Source: Candidatus Bathyarchaeia archaeon
Lineage (GTDB): Archaea; Thermoproteota; Bathyarchaeia; Bathyarchaeales; Bathycorpusculaceae
DNA: 57,088 bases
Direction: 5' to 3'
Assembly: GCA_050012755.1 (NCBI GenBank)
Contig: JBEKGO010000016.1
Span: 1-57,088, forward strand
Part shown: positions 1,391 to 56,350 of the stretch, piece by piece
How positions within the stretch are numbered: position 1 is the first letter of the stretch
Layout of the letters: every line of letters starts with the position of its first letter
Made by a program: the position numbers and the translations under genes
The notes under the pieces: generated by a model
The model's input: only the letters and a program-made list of their open reading frames with translations
Databases searched by the model: none
Told to the model about the DNA's origin: nothing

Positions 1391-2803
1391 TTAAGTTTTT
1401 TGAACGTTTTCTCGCTTGAATAGCCGCTGGAGCTTATGTCTACACGTCCATAATAGTCCAAGCAAGAGTCCAGACAACACAACTGCGAACCCCAAATATT
1501 GAAACGTTATGAGAGAACTGCTGGCTGTTAGCGGTGTAGTGGTCGACAGCGCATATCCGTAATTAACTTGCGGCTCAACTCTGTACTGCAGGTAATCGCG
1601 TGTCGAAAGCGCATTTGTATAAAACATGCTTGAAATCAACGATGCAGCAAACAGTATTACCGCTGACGCGGCAACCAAATAGAGCATATGTTTTTTCAGG
1701 TGGACCGTTGATTTTGCTGCTCTAAATGTTGCAAGGCTCTTTGTTATTAGGGAACCCACTAACAAAACAAGAAATGGCAAAGCTTGAAAATCATATTTAA
1801 TGGCGCTAAAATATGGTACGTTAAGCTTGAAAACTGCTCCCATAACAAAATTGACGCTTAAAATAAAGGCTATTGTCGCTAAGCATATCAAATCAACAAT
1901 AACTACTTTTGAAAAATATCTTTTAAGCGATAAAACCAAAACCAGGGAGAAAGCAGCTGCAACTAGAAAGTACAATCCTACCCCATAATTCAAAAGAAAA
2001 TTAGTCACAAAAAAAGGAGAAGGAACAACATGAGTACTTGCAGGAATTACGCTGGTAACATTGTTGTTATCAAAAATCGAAAATAACGAGCGACCAAGAA
2101 AAACTTGATACCAGAAAAGAGAAAACACAAGCGCTGGAATAAAAAATGCAGCTAGTTGGCTAAGTACCTGCTTTGTTCTTTTCGGTCGGGAGTAAATGTA
2201 GAATAAGAGTAAGGGGATGAGTACGAAAACAGCAAAAAACTTTGTTAGGACAGCGGCGGCAAAAACCAGTCCTGCAACCAAAGTAAGCTTAACTGAAACT
2301 TTGTTGATAGCCAAAATGCCTATGTACAAACAGAGTAGGCTCAAGAAAAGACATTGCGAATCGATAAGGAAGCTTCTTGATAGTACGACTTGCCATGGGT
2401 TCAAACCAAACAGGGCGGCAGCAAGCAATCCTGTGGATTTGCCGTAAAATCGCTTTCCAATTACATACAATAAGGCGACAGATCCAAGCCCAAAAAGAGT
2501 CACTAGGGCTACGCCTGTGTTTGTTGACAAACCAAAAATTCTGAAGAATGCCGCTTCCGTGTAGAATCCTAGGGGCGGCTGGTCAATCACAGTCCCGAAA
2601 ACTTTCACAAATGGAATCCCCATTCTAAGTACATTTGACGCAGCTTCGAATTCCATTTGCGTGTCATAAGTTTGATATGGCCCTAGTGAAAATGAAACGA
2701 ATGCAACTCCAATTAGAATTATAGAGAGGGGCAAGCCTTCAATTACCAATTTTGTGAAGCTAACCTTATTGAGCAATTTACCCCTTCTATTGGTTTTATA
2801 CAT
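1391..2803 (-). CDS. GT-C (ArnT/PMT_2 family) membrane glycosyltransferase
   Basis: DQPPLGFY motif, SRSFLIDS, AVLTKF and many transmembrane segments. Confidence 0.85.
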   Translation of the reverse strand: MYKTNRRGKLLNKVSFTKLVIEGLPLSIILIGVAFVSFSLGPYQTYDTQMEFEAASNVLRMGIPFVKVFGTVIDQPPLGFYTEAAFFRIFGLSTNTGVALVTLFGLGSVALLYVIGKRFYGKSTGLLAAALFGLNPWQVVLSRSFLIDSQCLFLSLLCLYIGILAINKVSVKLTLVAGLVFAAAVLTKFFAVFVLIPLLLFYIYSRPKRTKQVLSQLAAFFIPALVFSLFWYQVFLGRSLFSIFDNNNVTSVIPASTHVVPSPFFVTNFLLNYGVGLYFLVAAAFSLVLVLSLKRYFSKVVIVDLICLATIAFILSVNFVMGAVFKLNVPYFSAIKYDFQALPFLVLLVGSLITKSLATFRAAKSTVHLKKHMLYLVAASAVILFAASLISSMFYTNALSTRDYLQYRVEPQVNYGYALSTTTPLTASSSLITFQYLGFAVVLSGLLLGLLWTCRHKLQRLFKRENVQKT

Positions 2804-2876: not shown

Positions 2877-3689
2877 TTATTGAAATTCTGTCGCCTTTTT
2901 GAGTTCAGAAGCGGTTGCCTCTAATTCCTTAAGCAGCTTGTCGATATTTTCCTGACAATTCTTGATCACATTAATGAATGCGCTTCCAACGATAACGCCG
3001 TCAGCCCCTGCTCCGATAATTCGTGCTACATGTTCAGGCTTCGAGACGCCGAACCCTACCGCCAACGGAATCTTGCTGGACGTGAAAGGCAAAACCCGCT
3101 TGATTAGCTGAATAGTTGAATCCTCAACCGCTGACTGCGCACCCGTAACGCCGAAGTGGGACACAAGATAAAGAAAACCTGAAGAGCACTCAACAATTTT
3201 CGCAAGCCGCTCATTAGAGGTAAATGGCGCTGCCAAAAAAATTGTGTCTATCCCAGATTTGTTTGCTGCTTTTATGTAATCAGCGGCTTCTTCAACTGGT
3301 AAATCTGGAACGATAACGCCGTCAACCTTGCTTTTTTTGGCTGAGTTGAAAAACTTCTCCAGCCCCATCCTGAATACTGGATTGTAATAGGTCATTATTA
3401 CGATTGGTACGTCGTGGCTTTGTCGAATCTGCTTAGCGATCTCCAGCACTTTTGCAGGCGTTGTTCCTGCGGTTAAGGCGCGTACGCTTGCCGCTTGAAT
3501 TGTTGGTCCATCAACAATCGGGTCAGAAAAAGGCAAACCCAGCTCCAAAACATCAACACCGCCCTTGATTAGGGTATCAGTAATTTTGGGCGTCAGCTCA
3601 GGTTTTGGGTCTCCAGCCATGATGTAGCCAACGAGCGCCCCGTTGCCTTTTGCTTTGGCTTTTTGGAATGCTTTACTTATTGCGTTCAT
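2877..3689 (-). CDS. trpA: Tryptophan synthase alpha subunit
   Basis: [42 protein letters not shown]. Confidence 0.97.
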
Positions 3690-4882
3690 ATTCTTGCCCC
3701 TATGTAGTCTGCTATGGTTTCCACGTCTTTGTCTCCGCGCCCAGACAGCGTCACCACAATTGACTGGGTCTTCTTCATTTTAGGAGCGAGTTTCATTGCG
3801 TAGGCTACCGCATGTGACGATTCCAATGCAGGAAGAATCCCTTCTTCTTTACATAAGACCAAGAATGCGTCTACGGCTTCCTTGTCCGTAGCTGAAACAT
3901 ATTGAGCCCGCTTAAGCGTTTTTAGAAAGCTATGTTCGGGTCCAACACCAGGATAGTCTAAGCTTGCAGAAACGCTGCTTGTGTTCTGTATTTGCCCATT
4001 GCTGTCTTGGAGAACATAGGTTAGCATGCCGTGAAACACACCTTCGGCTCCTGCACCAAGAGAGGCGGCGTGTTTACCTGTTTCTAAGCCTTCGCCAGCA
4101 GCCTCGACACCATAAAACTCAACTGCCTCGTCGTTTTCGAAGGGATAGAAGGTGCCCATGGCGTTGCTTCCGCCTCCCACACAAGCAACTAACGCATCGG
4201 GGAGTTTGCCTTCTTTTTTGCGGAATTGCGCCTTAAGTTCTTTGCCGATTACGCTTTGGAAATCCCTAACAATCATCGGGTACGGGTGAGGACCAACGAC
4301 TGAGCCAATTAAGTAATATGTGTTTTCAAGGTTTGTAACCCAATCGCGAAAGGCTTCGTTTATGGAGTCTTTAAGGGTTTTTGAGCCAGTGTCCACAGGA
4401 TGCACTTGCGCATTGAGAAGTTTCATTCGGAAAACGTTAAGCCGTTGCCTTTCGCAGTCTTCTATGCCCATGTAAATCTCAGCTTTCAAGCCTAAAGCTG
4501 CACAAGCGATGGCTGTAGCTACGCCGTGTTGACCTGCACCTGTTTCGGCAATAACACGGGTTTTACCCATCCGTTTAGCCAAGAGCGCCTGCCCGATGGT
4601 GTTGTTTATTTTGTGTGCTCCGCCATGGGCTAGGTCTTCGCGTTTGAGGTAAATTTTGGCACCTCCAAGCTTTCGGGTTAGGTTCTCAGCGAAGTAGAGT
4701 GGGGTTGGCCTGCCTACGAACTCCGCGAGATAATAATCGAGTTCTTTCTGGAAACTGGGATCTTTACATGCCTTGTCGTATGCCTCTTCTAGTTCCTTAA
4801 TTGTCTCCATCAAGACTTCGGGAACAAAGCGACCACCATATTTTCCGTATTTGCCATTAACTGGGTAATTGGTTATTTTCAT
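3686..4882 (-). CDS. trpB: Tryptophan synthase beta subunit
   Basis: [15 protein letters not shown] (PLP lysine), [24 protein letters not shown]. Confidence 0.98.
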
Positions 4883-5658
4883 TTTGCATTCACAAACTCC
4901 CTAACTTTTTCTTCAAGATTATCGCTTAACATTATGGCTGAACCAATTAGGAAAGCTGATGCACCGCTTTCACGAAGGAAATGTACGTCGGATGGAGATT
5001 TTATTCCGCTTTCGCTAACAACAATTTTGTTTTTGGGATTTATTGATTGAATGATTGTTTTTGTCACGTTCAAATCCACCTTTAATGTTGCCAGATCACG
5101 GTTATTTATTCCAATTAAGTCAGCATCTGATTGTAGAGCAGAAACAAATTCGGAAAGCGTGTGGGTTTCAAGCAAAACCTCAAGCCCAAGCATGTGAGCA
5201 CCCGCAATCATTTCGTCAACAGTCTTTTCGCTGTAACCTCGATCAAAAAGCGCCTGAATTAACAAAACGGAACTTGCGCCGATTTTTGACGCTGCTTGGA
5301 TTTGTATAGGGCTTAAGACAATGTCTTTCATGAGGATTGGAAGCTTTACTGATTGTCGAGCTTGAGCCAACGCTTCTAAGGAACCGTCAAACTGTTTTGG
5401 TTCGGTTAACACAGATAAGGCTACAGCTCCGCCCCGTTCCATAGCTTTTGCAATCATGCTTGGTTGAACATTTCTTCTGATTACACCTGCCGACGGGGAA
5501 GCAGCTTTAATTTCTGTTATGATTGGGTTGACTTTGCAATCTAAAATCGATTTTTTTAGACTTACACAAACGCCGTCCATGGATTTTATCTCGTCATAAT
5601 ATTCGCTATCAATAGTTATTTGAGCAACACGGGCCAATACATCCAGAAAATCACTCAT
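4879..5658 (-). CDS. trpC: Indole-3-glycerol phosphate synthase
   Basis: [29 protein letters not shown]. Confidence 0.96.
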
Positions 5659-6721
5659 ATTTTATTTCCAACTCCTCAAGTTTTGAAAGGCTGCCGCCTG
5701 ACGCTTTAATCAAATCTTTAAGCTTCTTGTAAGCCGCTCCGTTATCGATTGATTCTCGAGCTAGCTCCATGCCTTCTTCAAAGTTTTTTGCTTTTCCACC
5801 GACAATTATTCCTGCTATGCTGTTAACAAGCACAAACTCCATTTTAGGATCACCGTGGGTAAGGTTGCCGCTAAGAATTTTAAATAAGGTTTCAGCGCTT
5901 TCATCAGGAGTTGCCACCTTTAAGTCATCGATACAGGCTGTTTTTACTCCAAAATCGTCTGGAGAGACTTCAAGTTCAGTGACTTCGCCACCTTTTAAAT
6001 GCGCAATCACTGTTTTGCCAACCGTTGACACTTCATCCAAGCCATCTAAGCCATGCACAACCATGGCTTCTTCGCATCCCAACCGTTGAAGAGCATAAGC
6101 CATTGGCGCCGTAAGTTTAGCATCGTAAACGCCAAGCAGTTGAGCATTAGCGCATGCAGGATTAGTTAATGGACCCAGAAGGTTGAATACGGTTCGGATA
6201 CCGATTTCCCGTCTTGTTTCAGCCGCATACTTCATAGCTGGATGAAAAGCTGGGGCAAACATGAAACCTATGCCAAAATTTTCTATGATTCTCTCCACCG
6301 CCTTCGGTTCCAAGTTTAGGATTAAACCAAGTTTTTCAAGTACATCAGCACTTCCGCTTTTGCTGGTAACCGCCCTGTTTCCATGTTTAGCAACAGCAAC
6401 TCCAGCACCAGCAATGACAAAGGCGGCTGCAGTGCTGACATTGAAGGTTTTTATCTTGTCACCGCCAGTCCCGCAAGTGTCCACAAGACGATTCCCCACA
6501 TTGGGATGTATTTGGTTACAATGCTCACGCATAACGCGGGCAAAAGCGATTAGTTCCTCAACCTCCTCGCCTTTCATTCGCAACGCAGTTAGAAAAGCGG
6601 CTGTTTGCGAGTTTGTTGCTTTGCCAGACATGACTTCACGCATGATTTCACCCGATTCGACTGTTGTTAAGCTTGAGCCTTCGATAAGTTTCTGTATGCC
6701 TTCCCTAATCATTGCGGTCAC
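5651..6721 (-). CDS. trpD: Anthranilate phosphoribosyltransferase
   Basis: DTCGTGGD, KHGNRAVTSKSGSAD, RTVFNLLGPLTNP. Confidence 0.97.
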   Translation of the reverse strand: MTAMIREGIQKLIEGSSLTTVESGEIMREVMSGKATNSQTAAFLTALRMKGEEVEELIAFARVMREHCNQIHPNVGNRLVDTCGTGGDKIKTFNVSTAAAFVIAGAGVAVAKHGNRAVTSKSGSADVLEKLGLILNLEPKAVERIIENFGIGFMFAPAFHPAMKYAAETRREIGIRTVFNLLGPLTNPACANAQLLGVYDAKLTAPMAYALQRLGCEEAMVVHGLDGLDEVSTVGKTVIAHLKGGEVTELEVSPDDFGVKTACIDDLKVATPDESAETLFKILSGNLTHGDPKMEFVLVNSIAGIIVGGKAKNFEEGMELARESIDNGAAYKKLKDLIKASGGSLSKLEELEIKYE

Positions 6722-7299
6722 CTGCCTTCCAAGAAATTCTTAATTATGATTTTGCCGTCTTCGCAGAGAATCGATTCAGGATGAAACTGCACTCCATCAA
6801 TCGGGAACTTCACATGCCGGACGCCCATGATTTCTCCATCTTCGATGGATTCTGCGGTGATTTCTAGGCATGAAGGAATAGAGCAGCGTTCTCCTGCAAG
6901 CGAATGATATCGTGTTGCCGTGAAGGGATTTCGTACGTCTGTGAAGATGCCTTTTTGGTCATGTTTTATTACACAGGTTTTGCCGTGCATAAGCCGTTTT
7001 GCATGGATAATTTTTCCGCCGTAAGCGTTGATTATGCCTTGGTGGCCCAAGCAAACGCCTAAAGTGGGAATTGTCTGGCTCATCGTTTGCAGGATGTTTG
7101 TGCAGACGCCAAAGTAGCGTTCATCTTCAGGTGTGCCTGGCCCAGGCGAAATCACGATGCGGTCGGGTTTAAGCTCAGCTATTTGTTTCAGATTTACCTG
7201 ATCGTTTCTGAAAACGATTGTTTCTGCACCAAGTTCACCTACGTATTGGACAAGATTGTAAACAAACGAATCATAATTATCAATAACAAGAGCCTTCAA
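6718..7299 (-). CDS. trpG: Anthranilate synthase component II (glutamine amidotransferase)
   Basis: IDNYDSF, SPGPG, GVCLGHQ, RYHSL, QFHPES. Confidence 0.96.
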   Translation of the reverse strand: MKALVIDNYDSFVYNLVQYVGELGAETIVFRNDQVNLKQIAELKPDRIVISPGPGTPEDERYFGVCTNILQTMSQTIPTLGVCLGHQGIINAYGGKIIHAKRLMHGKTCVIKHDQKGIFTDVRNPFTATRYHSLAGERCSIPSCLEITAESIEDGEIMGVRHVKFPIDGVQFHPESILCEDGKIIIKNFLEGR

Positions 7300-8709
7300 T
7301 TTTTTGTGCCTCCTGATTTTTCAAGCGCCTGCATCAGCGCCTTTGCTTTATGGTCGGTTTCAAACCACTCGCACTCTGGAACCGAATCCGCCACAATTCC
7401 GGCGCCAGCCTGAATGTACGCTTGGTTTTGGTCGGCGAAGAGCGTGCGAATTGTTATGGCGAAGTCTGCATTGCCATTGTACGAGAAATAGCCGACTGCA
7501 CCAGCGTAAGGACCACGCCTGTTTGGTTCAAGTTCATCAATGATTTCCATCGCGCGCACTTTTGGTGCTCCAGAAACGGTTCCGGCTGGAAAAACGGCTC
7601 TCAACGCATCATAGCTTTGCAGGTTATCCTTAAGTTCACCCACAACTTGCGACACAATGTGCTGAACGTGGCTGTACTGATGAACTTTCATGAATTCAGG
7701 CACGCGAACGCTGCCATACTTGGAGATTTTGCCAATGTCGTTCCGCGCTAAATCTACAAGCATTACATGTTCGGCTCGTTCTTTTGGGTCAGATAGCAGT
7801 TCATGGGATAATTTGCTGTTTTCCACTGGGTTTTCAGAAATGGGTTTGGTTCCGGCAATTGGGAAAGTCTCCACCATTCTATTTTCAACGCGGACAAGCA
7901 TTTCTGGGCTGGATCCGACAATCTGATGATCGTCTGACTTGTAGAAGTACATGTAGGGAGAAGGGTTAATGGTGCGCAAAGACTGGTAAAACGGGATTAA
8001 GCTACCTTTTATTTGGAGTTGGAAACGTTTTGAGAGGACAACTTGGAAAATGTCTCCTGCAGTTACGTATTCTTTTGCTTTTTCTACTGCTTTTTCAAAA
8101 TTCTCTTTTTTGGTGTTTATTTTGAGTTGAGTGCTAATTAATTCTTCAGTGTCAGTTGGTTGTTTGAGAAGGCTTTCTATTTCGGATAGGCGGTTCTCGG
8201 TTCGGTAGTAGTAGAATACTTGTTTTTGTGTGTGGTTGAATATGAATCCGTCGTCAAATATGCCCATTTCTAAATCAGGGAAACCCAAATCAGACCGTGA
8301 TTTTTCAGGCAGTTTTTCCCAATAACGGACTGCATCATAAGAAATGTAGCCGACTGCTCCGCCTATAAAACGGAATTTGCTGTTTGTGACCGCTTCGTAT
8401 TTCAGGAGTTCTTCTATGAGTTGCAGTGGATCACTTGTTTTCTTCACAACAGTTTCGTTTGTTCTCTCATTTTTTATTCTGGCTTCTTGTTTTTTTGATT
8501 GAATTGTTATTTTTGGGTCGAACCCGATGAAGGAGTATTGCGCAAGTTTTTTTGGTCCTTCAATGGACTCCAAAAGGTAGGTTGTTTGGTATTGTTTTTG
8601 GAGTTTTGAGAATATTTCGAGTGGTTGTTGGGTGAATGTGACTTTCTTGATTTTTAGGGGATTAGCTGGTTTGGTGGTTGTTGTTTGTGCCCCAAAGGCG
8701 ATTCCCCAT
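7296..8709 (-). CDS. trpE: Anthranilate synthase component I; start uncertain (ORF track starts at TTG 8573, but TrpE-like sequence continues upstream in frame with no ATG/GTG/TTG)
   Basis: GDIFQVVLS, SSPEML, KERAEHVMLVDLARND, FPAGTVSGAPK. Upstream in-frame PLEIFSKL...YLLES matches the TrpE N-terminus. Confidence 0.93.
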
Positions 8710-8750
8710 TTGTCATGCTTCCTTATGGTTCAGAAGCATACTGCAATGCA

Positions 8751-8760
8751 TTATTTAAGG
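8751..8760 (-). promoter_or_regulatory. Putative TATA box of the trp operon
   Basis: CCTTAAATAA on the minus strand. SD-like AAGGA at 8724-8720 lies 10 nt before ATG 8709. Confidence 0.5.
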
Positions 8761-8782
8761 CTTATCAGTGCAGAAATGTACA

Positions 8783-9103
8783 TCATTGAAGGACAGCGCT
8801 CATCCAATCAAGATAAGTTTTCGAACCATCAGCAATCGGAAGCGCCAAAATCTCAGGAACCTCATAGCTATGCAAGCCCTTCACGCGTTCAGTAACTTGC
8901 GCGAACAGGTCCGTACGCGATTTCATAACAACTAAACATTCCTCAGACTTCTCAATTTGGCCCGACCAATGAAAATAAGACGTGACCGGACCAGTGATGT
9001 TCCCACACGCAATTAAACGTTCATTCAAAAGCGCCTTTGTTATTTTTTCCGCTTCTAATTTATCTTTAGTGGCAACTAAAATGAGTATGTAATTCTTTTC
9101 CAA
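8783..9103 (-). CDS. cutA: Divalent-cation tolerance protein CutA
   Basis: RLIACGNI, SYFHWSG, HSYEVPEILALPI, YLDW. Confidence 0.95.
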   Translation of the reverse strand: MEKNYILILVATKDKLEAEKITKALLNERLIACGNITGPVTSYFHWSGQIEKSEECLVVMKSRTDLFAQVTERVKGLHSYEVPEILALPIADGSKTYLDWMSAVLQ

Positions 9104-10774: not shown

Positions 10775-10849
10775 GGGCCCGTGGCTCAGTCAGGCTAGAG
10801 CGGCGGACTCTTAATCCGTAGGTCGCGGGTTCAATTCCCGTCGGGCCCG
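10775..10849 (+). tRNA. tRNA-Lys(CUU), no encoded CCA
   Basis: Acceptor GGGCCCG/CGGGCCC, anticodon arm GCGGA-CTCTTAA-TCCGT, T-loop GGTTCAATTCC; TTTAAG about 25 nt upstream. Confidence 0.97.
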
Positions 10850-11139
10850 CCTAATTCTAACTCTGAAAAAGCAAGAAAAGTCGCAGAACGAGACCGAGGC
10901 TTAGTCTGAAAGAAGCTATTTTATGTTCAACGACTTTTTTCCCATAAACGCCTCATGAATGGCAAAAACAGCGGGACCATCCAAAGCGGGAATCTTAAAG
11001 GAACGCTAATTTGGTTGTTGAGACAATATAGGTTTAAGCACTTTCTCTTTCGCTATGCCTCTCGGCTGCTTTAGCCCGTTCACCCAAACTTACTCAAAAT
11101 CATTTTTAAGGGGGAAAAGTTTAAGGGCAATAGTTTCTT

Positions 11140-55971: not shown

Positions 55972-56093
55972 GCTGCGGTAACCAAGCCAGGTCAAAGGTG
56001 AAGGACTCAAGATCAAACATTTGGCCTGAAATGGGCTCATGATGGGAAATCCTTTCCCGCAGGGGTTCGCAGGTTCGAATCCTGCCCGCAGCA
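55972..56093 (+). tRNA. tRNA-Leu(CAA) with a 37-nt intron (56012-56048) at position 37/38
   Basis: Acceptor GCTGCGG/CCGCAGC, arm AAGGA-CTCAAG|A-TCCTT, BHB (CTCA/TGGG helix, AGA and AAA bulges), long variable arm, GGTTCGAATCC. Confidence 0.95.
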
Positions 56094-56350
56094 CTTTTAG
56101 TCTCATTATGAGCTTGTTTTGGTAAATACACTAAAAATAGGCTTTTTAAAATATGCCTTGCACAAGACAGCACACGAATTTTAAGCAAGGAAGAATGTTG
56201 CCCTCCTCATCGCGGGACGATACTGGTTGGGCGACTTATAAGTGAAGATCATCTGTGGTTAATTAAAAATCAGCCTGCCGAAGTCTGGGTTCAAATCCCA
56301 ACGTGCTACTAATTTGTTTCTTAAGACGCGCACGATATAGGTTTGCTTGT

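Follow-up and report, generated by a model that had tools for sequence, protein, structure and literature searches.

The trpE gene in a 57,088-nucleotide stretch of DNA from a Candidatus Bathyarchaeia archaeon (contig JBEKGO010000016.1; the whole stretch is called the window here) appears to be translated by way of a programmed +1 ribosomal frameshift, in which the A-site codon is a tryptophan codon. Such a shift would couple the expression of trpEGDCBA to charged tRNA-Trp; we give this full reading a probability of about 0.7. The frameshift itself is strongly supported by the comparison of related loci, and the sensing of tryptophan is suggested by an A-site UGG that never varies, taken together with the known kinetics of +1 slippage.

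The trp operon and its two overlapping frames

The elements of the locus are the following.

8751 to 8758, minus strand: TATA-like box TTAAATAA (inside CCTTAAATAAT), read directly, about 45 nt 5′ of the leader ATG
8718 to 8724, minus strand: initiation Shine-Dalgarno (SD) sequence AAGGAAG, 8 nt before the leader ATG
8662 to 8709, minus strand: leader ORF (frame A), ATG GGG AAT CGC CTT TGG GGC ... TAA, translated as MGNRLWGTNNNHQTS and then the stop, with one Trp codon
8700 to 8707, minus strand: internal SD-like block GGGGAAUC, which ends 2 nt before the P-site codon, its GGGG core lying 6 nt before
8691 to 8697, minus strand: candidate shift site CUU UGG G, P-site CUU to UUU (8696-8694), next codon GGG (8693-8691)
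7296 to 8696, minus strand: TrpE coding sequence after the shift, with FG, a T/K/P/Q-rich linker of 15-28 codons and then the anthranilate synthase component I domain
within 2877 to 7299, minus strand: trpG (7299-6718), trpD (6721-5651), trpC (5658-4879), trpB (4882-3686) and trpA (3689-2877), from NCBIfam matches and ORF coordinates

Read from the sequence, the TrpE frame on the minus strand is open from 8729 and is preceded by a TGA (8732-8730). The first ATG, GTG, TTG or CTG of this frame in the window is the TTG at 8573, which already falls within the TIGR01820 (TrpE-arch) profile, 17 positions from its beginning at residue 36 of the translation from 8729; trpE thus has no in-frame ATG, GTG or TTG ahead of its conserved domain. 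The product is anthranilate synthase component I: it matches TIGR01820 with 545.5 bits (cut-off 512.05) over profile positions 1-449 of 449. Downstream, the starts of trpG, trpD, trpC, trpB and trpA each overlap the stop of the gene before, as judged from the ORF coordinates, and these overlaps suggest that translation may be coupled from trpE to trpG-D-C-B-A.

The leader ATG (8709-8707) is one base out of the TrpE frame. The ORF that it opens ends at a TAA (8664-8662) after 15 codons, and a TGA (8715-8713) closes frame A two codons 5′ of the ATG. The sequence AAGCCTTAAATA at the TATA-like box is kept in nearly all loci of the genus; the position of the box points to a short leadered mRNA, with a transcription start near 8730-8725. 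The TrpE frame, the out-of-frame ATG at 8709, the overlap of CUU and UUU and the G-rich element upstream, all described in an earlier note on this DNA, are found on the minus strand as it had them, and direct reading also bears out its remark that the UGG at the shift is the sole Trp codon of the short ORF.

The initiation SD is, in all lineages, the first peak of complementarity to the 3′ tail of 16S rRNA, and GGAG or GGAA is kept at positions -14 to -11 among the genus sequences. The tail was taken from a 3′ fragment on contig C11 of the genome, where it was located by motif; a search of the window's own genome with RF01959 gave no SSU rRNA match. An ATG further upstream, at 8716 in the third frame (MTNGESPL...), was rejected as a start: its ATGA lies 1-2 nt past the SD core, and relatives place this ATG in differing phases to trpE (offsets of -8, -11, -29 and others). 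This ATGA is better read as part of an extended SD, in which UGAU would pair with the 16S tail.

The earlier note had offered as a strong alternative that a single nucleotide was lost from a homopolymer, and the G4 run (8693-8690), the C4 run (8660-8657) and the third-frame TTG at 8695 that it involves are all present in the window. An indel could plausibly have arisen in the G4 run of the window, and trpE is broken internally in some related MAGs, as would be expected of a sequencing or assembly error or of a decaying pseudogene. Against this, three DNA runs, each independent of the others, gave contigs that agree with the window throughout 8592/8612-8950 (0 differences, 0 gaps), and the G4 run differs from the closest relative by two substitutions and no indel. 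The rest of trpE is intact and scores above the family cut-off, and the same phase relation recurs in 106 of the 110 loci of the genus and in 207 of the 222 loci of the class. The lost-nucleotide alternative does not survive these comparisons, and an error or a pseudogene is extremely unlikely.

Conservation of the out-of-frame layout

The ATG-N9-CTTTGG type of layout, whose alignment in the trpE 5′ regions of relatives the earlier note had proposed as a check, is conserved in the form NTT-TGG. Scored as [ATG]TG-N9-NTT-TGG at the +1 offset to TrpE (a start, three codons, NTT and TGG), it occurs in those 207 of 222 trpE loci, which belong to 47 genera and 17 families of the class; the same pattern at two control offsets is found in 2 and 0 of the 222 loci. 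The start codon of the leader is ATG in 192 of the 207 loci, GTG in 11 and TTG in 4, and no other codon is used. The ORF in frame A is 7-51 codons long in relatives and contains exactly one Trp codon in 203 of the 207 loci.

As a negative control, 77 anchored TrpE loci from a collection of named genomes, mostly bacterial, were scored among the matches listed: the pattern is present only in two Nitrososphaerota MAGs and is absent from 73 bacterial and other loci. The window's own genome has 605 loose sites, of which 13 are followed by a long +1 ORF and 2 have no upstream in-frame start; the second of these two genes is rpS3Ae, with an ordinary TTG start, which leaves trpE as the only gene of this genome that needs a shift.

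The TrpE frame has a stop at most four codons upstream of TTT in 90 of the 207 loci. In one genus (g39, 8 loci) a TAG or TAA stands immediately 5′ of TTT, which excludes an in-frame start further upstream there. No canonical in-frame start is found anywhere before the domain in 107 of the 207 loci; the other 100 have one, at places that are not conserved, and these count against the frameshift. Downstream of the site, the linker behaves as coding in the TrpE frame only: it keeps its phase across a length that varies between 15 and 28 codons, and it has stops in each of the two other frames in 195 of the 207 loci. Two overlapping frames thus appear both to be needed, with the start in the upstream one, as in +1 frameshifting. 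What the comparison of sequences shows is that the locus has a leader start, a shift site and an internal SD-like block, and that the frame must change.

Nature also provides fusions in which no shift is needed. In three relatives the same leader ATG continues in frame into TrpE (MRNHL-DNQ... in G006, MKECF-RTQ... in G062, and G100, which has one G fewer), and the lineages that lost the site have plain in-frame starts instead. A UUU-UGG version of the site also occurs in 32 of 35 loci of a second order, a distant one to which a Methanobacteriaceae MAG belongs. In these 32 of 35 motif-bearing loci an in-frame GTG is always retained as well, three codons 5′ of TTT, which counts against the frameshift.

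This GTG belongs with a reading in which there is no frameshift at all. TrpE would start in its own frame, at an AUC, AUU or AUA codon (position +7) or at a nearby GTG or ATG, and the out-of-frame, overlapping ORF would encode a Trp-containing leader peptide that tunes this start. The +7 codon is always Ile in the genus (ATC 90, ATT 14, ATA 1), and some distant lineages have an ATG or GTG 1-3 codons from TTT. The variation within the genus points the same way. Among 105 distinct genus sequences, positions +4, +5, +7 and +8 are invariant, and the 19-nt block varies at +3, +6, +9 and +12, which are third positions of the TrpE frame; over the block this frame encodes G-I-A-F-G, and its Gly and Ile codons change only synonymously. 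Such a pattern is also expected if the TrpE frame is translated from +4, which counts against the frameshift.

Other features of the same sequences do not fit an in-frame start. Position +9 is never G in the 105 genus sequences, though C, T and A all occur. The ATG or GTG near TTT is not conserved inside genera (in g16 the position is M, I, V or K), and the g39 loci allow no start of TrpE upstream of their stop. The initiation SD stands at a distance that suits the leader ATG and is 15-18 nt away from +7, and the natural fusions begin at the leader ATG. Finally, stalling at UGG would place a ribosome over +7, so that the regulation would have the wrong sign. Initiation at a non-AUG codon of the infC type (AUU) was rejected as well, as the SD spacing fits the leader ATG and the g39 stop lies between +7 and TTT. 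On balance, a start of TrpE in its own frame is improbable. The prfB-like +1 shift at CUU-UGG which the earlier note had put forward is supported by the variation of the leader start among start codons only, the g39 stop, the in-frame fusions and the conserved block complementary to the anti-SD.

The slip site and the proposed mechanism

In the window, the leader frame reads CTT (8697-8695) and TGG (8694-8692), and the TrpE frame reads TTT from 8696 and GGG from 8693. Across the class, the P-site codon is only CTT, ATT, GTT or TTT, and the A-site codon is TGG in 207 of 207 loci. The sequence is thus NUU followed by U in every case, which means that the P-site tRNA could re-pair in the +1 frame. 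tRNAs with the anticodons GAG, GAU, GAC and GAA are found in the window's own genome, and re-pairing would be the step that changes the frame. The site is also constrained beyond the protein that it encodes. Phe is always TTT at this place and never TTC, with TTT making up 45% of the Phe codons elsewhere in trpE genes, and GGC is used at the site in 96% of the genus loci, compared to 40% elsewhere in trpE. The constraint at synonymous positions exceeds that on the protein, as in programmed frameshifting. On the other hand, tRNA-Trp is single-copy in the window's own genome like most tRNAs, so UGG is not intrinsically a codon with a rare tRNA, and this counts against the frameshift reading.

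The internal SD-like block is the second peak of anti-SD duplex energy in every lineage (-5.5 to -10 kcal/mol); the peak falls at window starts -15 to -9 in all of them, as for a stimulator of the prfB type. The sequence of the block changes among genera (GGGUGAUC, GAGGGAUA, GAGGUAUC) and its complementarity to the 16S tail is retained. The block probably promotes the slip, by analogy with prfB. Its spacing to the slip codon, 2-6 nt compared to 3 nt in prfB, counts against this likeness. RNA structure was rejected as a stimulator: the fold of 8620-8730 is no better than that of shuffled sequences (z = -1.05).

The frame could also be corrected at the level of RNA, if transcriptional slippage or editing added or removed a base in the T or G run. 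Known transcriptional slippage sites need much longer homopolymers; here both runs are short, with three Ts in most loci and two Gs everywhere except in the window, and their length is not conserved, as the P-site codon varies between CTT, ATT, GTT and TTT. In a correction of this type, neither the conserved leader start nor the initiation SD nor the internal SD-like block would have a role, and we consider it very improbable. Two RNA contigs from one RNA run cover 8526-8676 and 8759-8950, both outside the shift site, and are 92-95% alike.

Another reading retains the frameshift and denies the regulation. The +1 shift would be obligatory but constitutive, an ancient 1-nt change that became fixed, with efficient slippage and an incidental Trp codon. 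The Gly that follows Phe in the TrpE frame is invariant, so that UGG could be a by-product of TTT GGN, and one paralogue (L276, the only one of its kind) has CUU-UAG-C at the same place, with a stop in the position of the slow codon as in prfB, which also speaks for the frameshift itself; UAG at its A site is, or once was, functional. However, UGG occupies the A site in 207 of 207 loci although the linker just after it is highly variable, and trpE is the first gene of the Trp pathway. The lineages that lost the site took plain in-frame starts, so that repair of a mere defect would have been easy. Moreover, where a P-site slip and decoding at the A site compete, the kinetics of the slip depend on how much cognate aminoacyl-tRNA is supplied, as is described for hungry codons in part of a review (PMC5009743). 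Constitutive slippage is therefore unlikely.

The regulated frameshift that we favor would proceed as follows. The ribosome would start at the ATG at 8709 by means of the upstream SD and make M-G-N-R-L, which would place peptidyl-tRNA-Leu(GAG) on CUU in the P site and present UGG in the A site. When charged tRNA-Trp arrives fast, the leader frame would continue and end after 15 codons, and no TrpE would be made. When the A site stays empty, the P-site tRNA would re-pair in +1 on UUU; the GAN anticodons of Leu, Ile, Val and Phe would all retain two pairs with U after the slip. A Gly-tRNA would then read GGN and the ribosome would go on into TrpE, from which it may pass through the overlapping stop/start junctions into trpG-D-C-B-A. 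The output of TrpE would thus rise as Trp-tRNA falls. Such a translational feedback loop would take the role of leader-peptide attenuation, TRAP or T-boxes in bacteria. We lean toward the view that the whole archaeal class (Nitrososphaerota, by the nearest named records) and the second order regulate Trp synthesis in this manner, with a +1 frameshift of the hungry-codon type placed 5′ in trpE.

Significance and comparison with known systems

To our knowledge, no attenuation-like system is established for archaeal trp operons, and the translational sensing of amino-acid supply in archaea is largely unknown. A literature search, with subscription journals, supplements and the GeneTack and Recode databases outside its scope, found no description of a trpE frameshift. 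In the relevant part of a 2016 review, it is said of hungry-codon frameshifting for starvation-specific products that "no examples are known" (PMC5009743), and part of a 2021 review counts only one programmed frameshift reported in archaea, in the -1 direction (PMC8211752). Both gaps would be closed by a NUU-UGG gate on trpE that is conserved throughout the class. If the proposal is correct, it would be the first natural sense-codon frameshift that senses the amino acid of the pathway it gates, and no conserved programmed frameshift in the +1 direction would have been known before from a cellular gene of archaea. The gate would be the archaeal counterpart of attenuation, and it may predate the split of the class and the second order.

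There are practical consequences as well. Where gene calling depends on an in-frame start, trpE will be truncated or flagged as broken in hundreds of genomes, including those of relatives of ecologically important ammonia oxidizers, and this distorts the inference of Trp auxotrophy. The model is directly testable, with a 19-nt element, one codon and one amino acid, and the natural revertants (the in-frame fusions, the families with plain starts and the UAG variant) are ready comparators.

The bacterial release factor 2 gene, prfB, is autoregulated by a +1 frameshift at CUU UGA C, where an SD-like element lies 3 nt further 5′. The trpE site resembles it in the proposed slip from CUU to UUU in the P site, in a slow A-site codon that begins with UG (followed by C in most of the order to which the trpE host belongs), in the SD-like block just 5′ and in a short 0-frame ORF that ends if the A-site codon is decoded. 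In both cases the reader of the A-site codon would report on the product of the pathway. However, prfB has a stop in the A site, which its own product reads, and trpE has a sense codon there, which is read by a tRNA; with UGG in 207 of 207 loci, autoregulation of the prfB type does not apply. The trpE site also differs by its place at codons 5-6, right after initiation, by an SD-like spacing of 2-6 nt, by its archaeal host and by a P-site codon that may be AUU, GUU or UUU, and trpE is unrelated to prfB.

The +1 frameshifting of yeast Ty1, ABP140 and EST3 at CUU_AGG_C, as presented in part of the 2016 review (PMC5009743), also relies on a hungry sense codon. The likeness to Ty1 lies in the heptamer of CUU, a slow sense codon and C, and in the mechanism proposed for trpE, in which a P-site tRNA-Leu would re-pair on the overlapping codon while a scarce tRNA is awaited. 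The A-site tRNA of Ty1 is constitutively rare, which fixes the ratio of products, whereas the codon at trpE is that of the operon's own amino acid, so that the rate of shifting would report its supply. A putative SD-like stimulator is additionally present at trpE.

Like trpL and other leader peptides, the trpE leader is a short ORF with a cognate codon before the first biosynthetic gene, on which the ribosome would sense charged tRNA. It differs from them by a single Trp codon (203 of 207 loci) in place of tandem ones, and by a fold that gives no terminator/antiterminator structure (z = -1.05); the tandem codons and alternative hairpins of trpL-type attenuation were thus not found at this locus. 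In addition, the trpE leader overlaps the enzyme, to which it would be fused by recoding, and the output would be a change of frame, not of transcription. Frameshifting in the pheL leader is termed apparently incidental in a title cited by the 2016 review (PMC5009743).

Recoding is known in archaea from the -1 frameshift of fucA1 in Saccharolobus solfataricus and from predicted shifts in Mg-chelatase genes, according to parts of two reviews (PMC8211752, PMC5009743). These cases share with trpE an archaeal cellular gene that is split over two frames. The trpE case differs from them by its +1 direction, its type of site, its extreme 5′ position, its proposed regulatory logic and its phylogenetic breadth.

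The 5' end of trpE and its surroundings

The window carries a tryptophan operon on its minus strand (about 8709 to 2877). Its six genes, trpE-trpG-trpD-trpC-trpB-trpA, are all identified by NCBIfam; the ORF coordinates give a stop/start overlap at every junction. The features around it and three tRNA genes are the following.

cutA, ending at 8783, upstream of trpE (NCBIfam)
TATA-like element CCTTAAATAAT, after the end of cutA and upstream of the trpE leader (read from the sequence)
10775-10851, plus strand, tRNA-Lys(CTT) (ARAGORN)
55972-56094, plus strand, tRNA-Ser(CGA), intron-containing (ARAGORN)
contig C1, 34084-34254, tRNA-Trp(CCA), the single one in the window's genome, with an 80-nt intron

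The TrpE frame is open from 8729, and its first ATG, GTG, TTG or CTG is the TTG at 8573, which falls 17 positions within the TrpE-arch profile. An ATG at 8709, one base off this frame and preceded by AAGGAAG, opens a 15-codon leader (ATG GGG AAT CGC CTT TGG GGC ... TAA, MGNRLWGTNNNHQTS) whose frame is closed by a stop two codons upstream. A one-base forward move from CTT (8697) to TTT (8696) enters the TrpE frame. An earlier note, made from the sequence alone, had described this 5' end and proposed a tryptophan-sensing +1 frameshift; all its coordinates are confirmed on the minus strand.

The strong alternative considered in that note, a 1-nt homopolymer deletion, is contradicted by independent data. 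Logan contigs from three DNA runs (different studies and years) span 8592 or 8612 to 8950 with 0 differing letters and 0 gaps. The site region aligns without indel with that of the closest relative (89% identical in the N-terminal part), from which the G4 run differs by two substitutions, GG for CA. Sequencing or assembly error at this site is rejected on the basis of this agreement.

In the whole genome, a loose pattern finds 605 sites, and at 13 of them a short leader frame is combined with a +1 ORF of at least 150 codons. Only trpE and the gene of ribosomal protein S3Ae lack an upstream in-frame start among those 13. S3Ae was rejected as a second case, since its ordinary start, a TTG, lies six codons downstream, and so was a look-alike site on contig C22, in a membrane protein gene with an in-frame ATG.

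Conserved non-coding blocks surround the trpE promoter, both in the window (8725-8775 on the minus strand) and at the corresponding place in relatives: a TGTAC/GCACT-GATAAGCC box lies immediately upstream of the TATA-like element, and GTATGCTTCTGAAC between this element and the SD of the leader. These blocks may represent a site for a regulator, or an initiator. A conserved ATGA, whose phase varies among relatives, adjoins the SD core. Directly downstream of trpA, a 470-residue ORF (1391-2803, minus strand) has no match at E <= 1e-20 in an NCBIfam search.

Conservation of the leader layout

Of 120 species genomes in the genus, 111 have the N-terminal part of TrpE, and the 5' ends were fetched from these. 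The succession ATG, 9 nt, NTT and TGG, with the ATG one base off the TrpE frame, is found in 106 of 110 genus loci (a count that leaves out three second copies, L198-L200). An even draw from the order gave this part of TrpE in 96 of 201 genomes; the other genera provide 76 loci, 72 of them anchored, and the layout is seen in 70 of these 72. Three of the four unanchored loci have the motif and the fourth, L274, has a plain in-frame ATG. In the class draw, TrpE was found in 121 of 301 genomes; the layout occurs in 31 of 40 loci from other orders, chosen by hand to spread across families, and in the remaining nine (from families f24 and f34 and from a single genus of f31), TrpE begins at an in-frame start with an ordinary SD. 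Overall, the layout is present in 207 of 222 loci, from 47 genera and 17 families, and the same pattern in the two other phases in 2/222 and 0/222; these tallies are counts and not probabilities, because related genomes are not independent. The out-of-frame ATG-N9-CTTTGG envisaged in the earlier note is conserved, in the form NTT-TGG. As a negative control, among the 77 anchored TrpE loci listed from a named genome collection, mostly bacteria, the strict pattern occurs only in two Nitrososphaerota MAGs.

Among 105 distinct genus sequences, a 19-nt block, ATG-RGG-NAT-NNN-NTT-TGG-C, is conserved far above its flanks. The conservation of ATG, TT and TGG is uninformative, because the search pattern demanded them. 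Positions +4, +5, +7, +8 and +18 (with the first base of the leader start codon as 0) were not demanded; the first four are invariant and +18 is C in 96%. TTC never replaces TTT at the site in any genus locus; elsewhere in 21 of these trpE genes, Phe is encoded by TTT in only 45% of cases and Gly by GGC in 40%.

The exceptions in the genus include fused frames. The leader ATG is in the TrpE frame in G006 (ATG AGG AAC CAC CTT GAC...), in G062 (ATG AAA GAA TGC TTT CGC...) and in G100, which has one G fewer; an assembly error is possible in G100 because this MAG is 66% complete. The same ATG therefore acts as an ordinary start in the fused loci. Frame fusion is likewise found for prfB in some bacteria. 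In G113 the motif is present with a disturbed phase, and trpE is broken elsewhere in the same assembly. One genome of genus g39, G188, has two trpE copies: L276 reads ATG GGT GAT CCA CTT TAG C, with a stop at the A-site position, and L274 starts at its ordinary in-frame ATG, with no leader.

A similar arrangement is seen in a second archaeal order. A Methanobacteriaceae MAG of the named collection shows it, as do 32 of 35 loci examined in its order (together L095, L325, L327-L334, L338-L355 and L358-L362): an SD (AGGTGA) and ATG are followed by five codons and TTT TGG C. The leader peptide is M-K-x-S/C-E-C/Y-F-W and the TrpE frame runs on from TTT GGC. The frameshift is not obligatory there, because an in-frame GTG, which also belongs to the GUGA pairing with the 16S tail, is always present three codons before TTT. 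L335, L336 and L337 have neither the motif nor an ATG, GTG or TTG at the trpE 5' end; in these loci an ATT, possibly used as a non-canonical start, stands 3-4 nt after AGGTGAT.

No TrpE was found in many families of the window's order and class (f6, 0/25; f3, 0/5; f5, 0/4 in the order sample), and f24 has it in only 8 of 71 genomes of the class sample. Many of these families include genomes that are more than 90% complete; Trp auxotrophy may be widespread among them, or their enzyme may have diverged strongly. In six genus MAGs (G004, G010, G012, G020, G022, G113), trpE is split by internal frame breaks or stops, yet the 5' leader layout is kept; the assemblies are probably error-prone. Open frames of 655-668 codons in L011 (G021), G102, G069, G060 and G055 suggest TrpE-TrpG fusions. 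L198 (G057:C16:179694-180154) combines a partial second leader copy (ATGGGGAATCGCCTTTGG) with an N-terminal TrpE fragment, about 82 kb from the intact trpE on the same contig.

Frameshift or unusual start

TrpE could instead begin in its own frame, at an AUH codon at +7. This is a serious rival, because variation in the genus block falls on third codon positions of the TrpE frame, read as G-I-A-F-G, and the +7 codon is always Ile. However, the leader start is only ATG (192), GTG (11) or TTG (4), an initiation-codon signature that is meaningless in the TrpE frame, and anti-SD complementarity peaks at the correct distance for this start, 15-18 nt from +7. Genus g39 has the block ATG GGT GAC TTA GTT TGG C, which reads TGG GTG ACT TAG TTT GGC in the TrpE frame; this frame is open and in phase from TTT onward, yet initiation upstream of TTT is impossible there because, in 8 loci, a stop immediately precedes it. 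An in-frame ATG or GTG near TTT is not kept even inside a genus (M, I, V or K in g16), and the natural in-frame fusions start at the leader ATG.

A linker of 15 to 28 codons, rich in T, K, P and Q, separates the site from the folded domain. Its phase with the site is always kept, and each of the two other frames has stops in 195 of 207 loci (an open TrpE frame across the linker was a classifier condition, which removed at most one locus). In the 60 nt upstream of the leader start, all three frames contain stops, in 181-187 of 207 loci. Coding therefore starts at the leader and goes on in the TrpE frame from TTT. Comparison between genomes thus shows, at the level of sequence, the need for a frame change at trpE, and the frameshift itself is highly probable.

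The P-site codon is CTT, ATT, GTT or TTT, always NTT. The window's genome has tRNAs with anticodons GAG, GAU, GAC and GAA, each of which would retain two pairs on UUU after the +1 move. UGG occupies the A site in 207/207 loci, and 203 of these leaders have no other Trp codon. It is followed by C in 161 of 176 loci of this order and by a variable base in other orders. The 16S 3' tail used for the pairing, …GGAUCACCUCCU, was read on contig C11. Anti-SD complementarity peaks a second time in every lineage, at -5.5 to -10 kcal/mol in 9-nt windows, which equals the initiation SD in strength; this peak ends 2-6 nt upstream of the P-site codon. The sequence of this internal block varies by genus (GGGGAAUC, GGGUGAUC, GAGGGAUA, GAGGUAUC) and the pairing is preserved. 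RNA folding around the site gave no structure standing out.

Proposed mechanism and known systems

While UGG awaits Trp-tRNA, the peptidyl-tRNA on NUU would slip to UUU, and GGN would then be captured by Gly-tRNA. When UGG is decoded quickly, the ribosome would meet a stop 7-51 codons further. Since slippage would compete with UGG decoding, a fall in charged tRNA-Trp should raise the proportion of ribosomes that enter trpE, and the overlapping junctions could relay the effect to trpG-D-C-B-A. What we infer here is the chemistry of slippage, the part played by the SD-like block, the response to Trp and the coupling to downstream genes. We put the probability of the whole reading, a Trp-responsive +1 frameshift at the trpE 5' end with coupled downstream genes, at about 0.7.

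A literature search outside subscription journals, supplements and frameshift databases found no published use of a sense-codon frameshift as a sensor for its own pathway, no frameshift in trpE and no conserved +1 shift in any cellular gene of archaea. A 2016 review states that hungry-codon frameshifting for starvation-specific products has no known examples (PMC5009743). The abstract of a 2021 review of archaeal recoding gives just one case, a -1 event, and the text of this review has no mention of trpE, tryptophan, anthranilate, Thaumarchaeota or Nitroso- (PMC8211752).

Frameshifting by +1 at a slow A-site codon, together with an SD-like stimulator, is already known as a class of mechanism. 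The yeast element Ty1 uses CUU_AGG_C, according to the 2016 review (PMC5009743), and the trpE site has the same form, with a Trp codon as the slow codon. In prfB, an SD-like sequence is followed by CUU, UGA and C; the trpE site has the same architecture, in which the slow codon is replaced by that of tryptophan.
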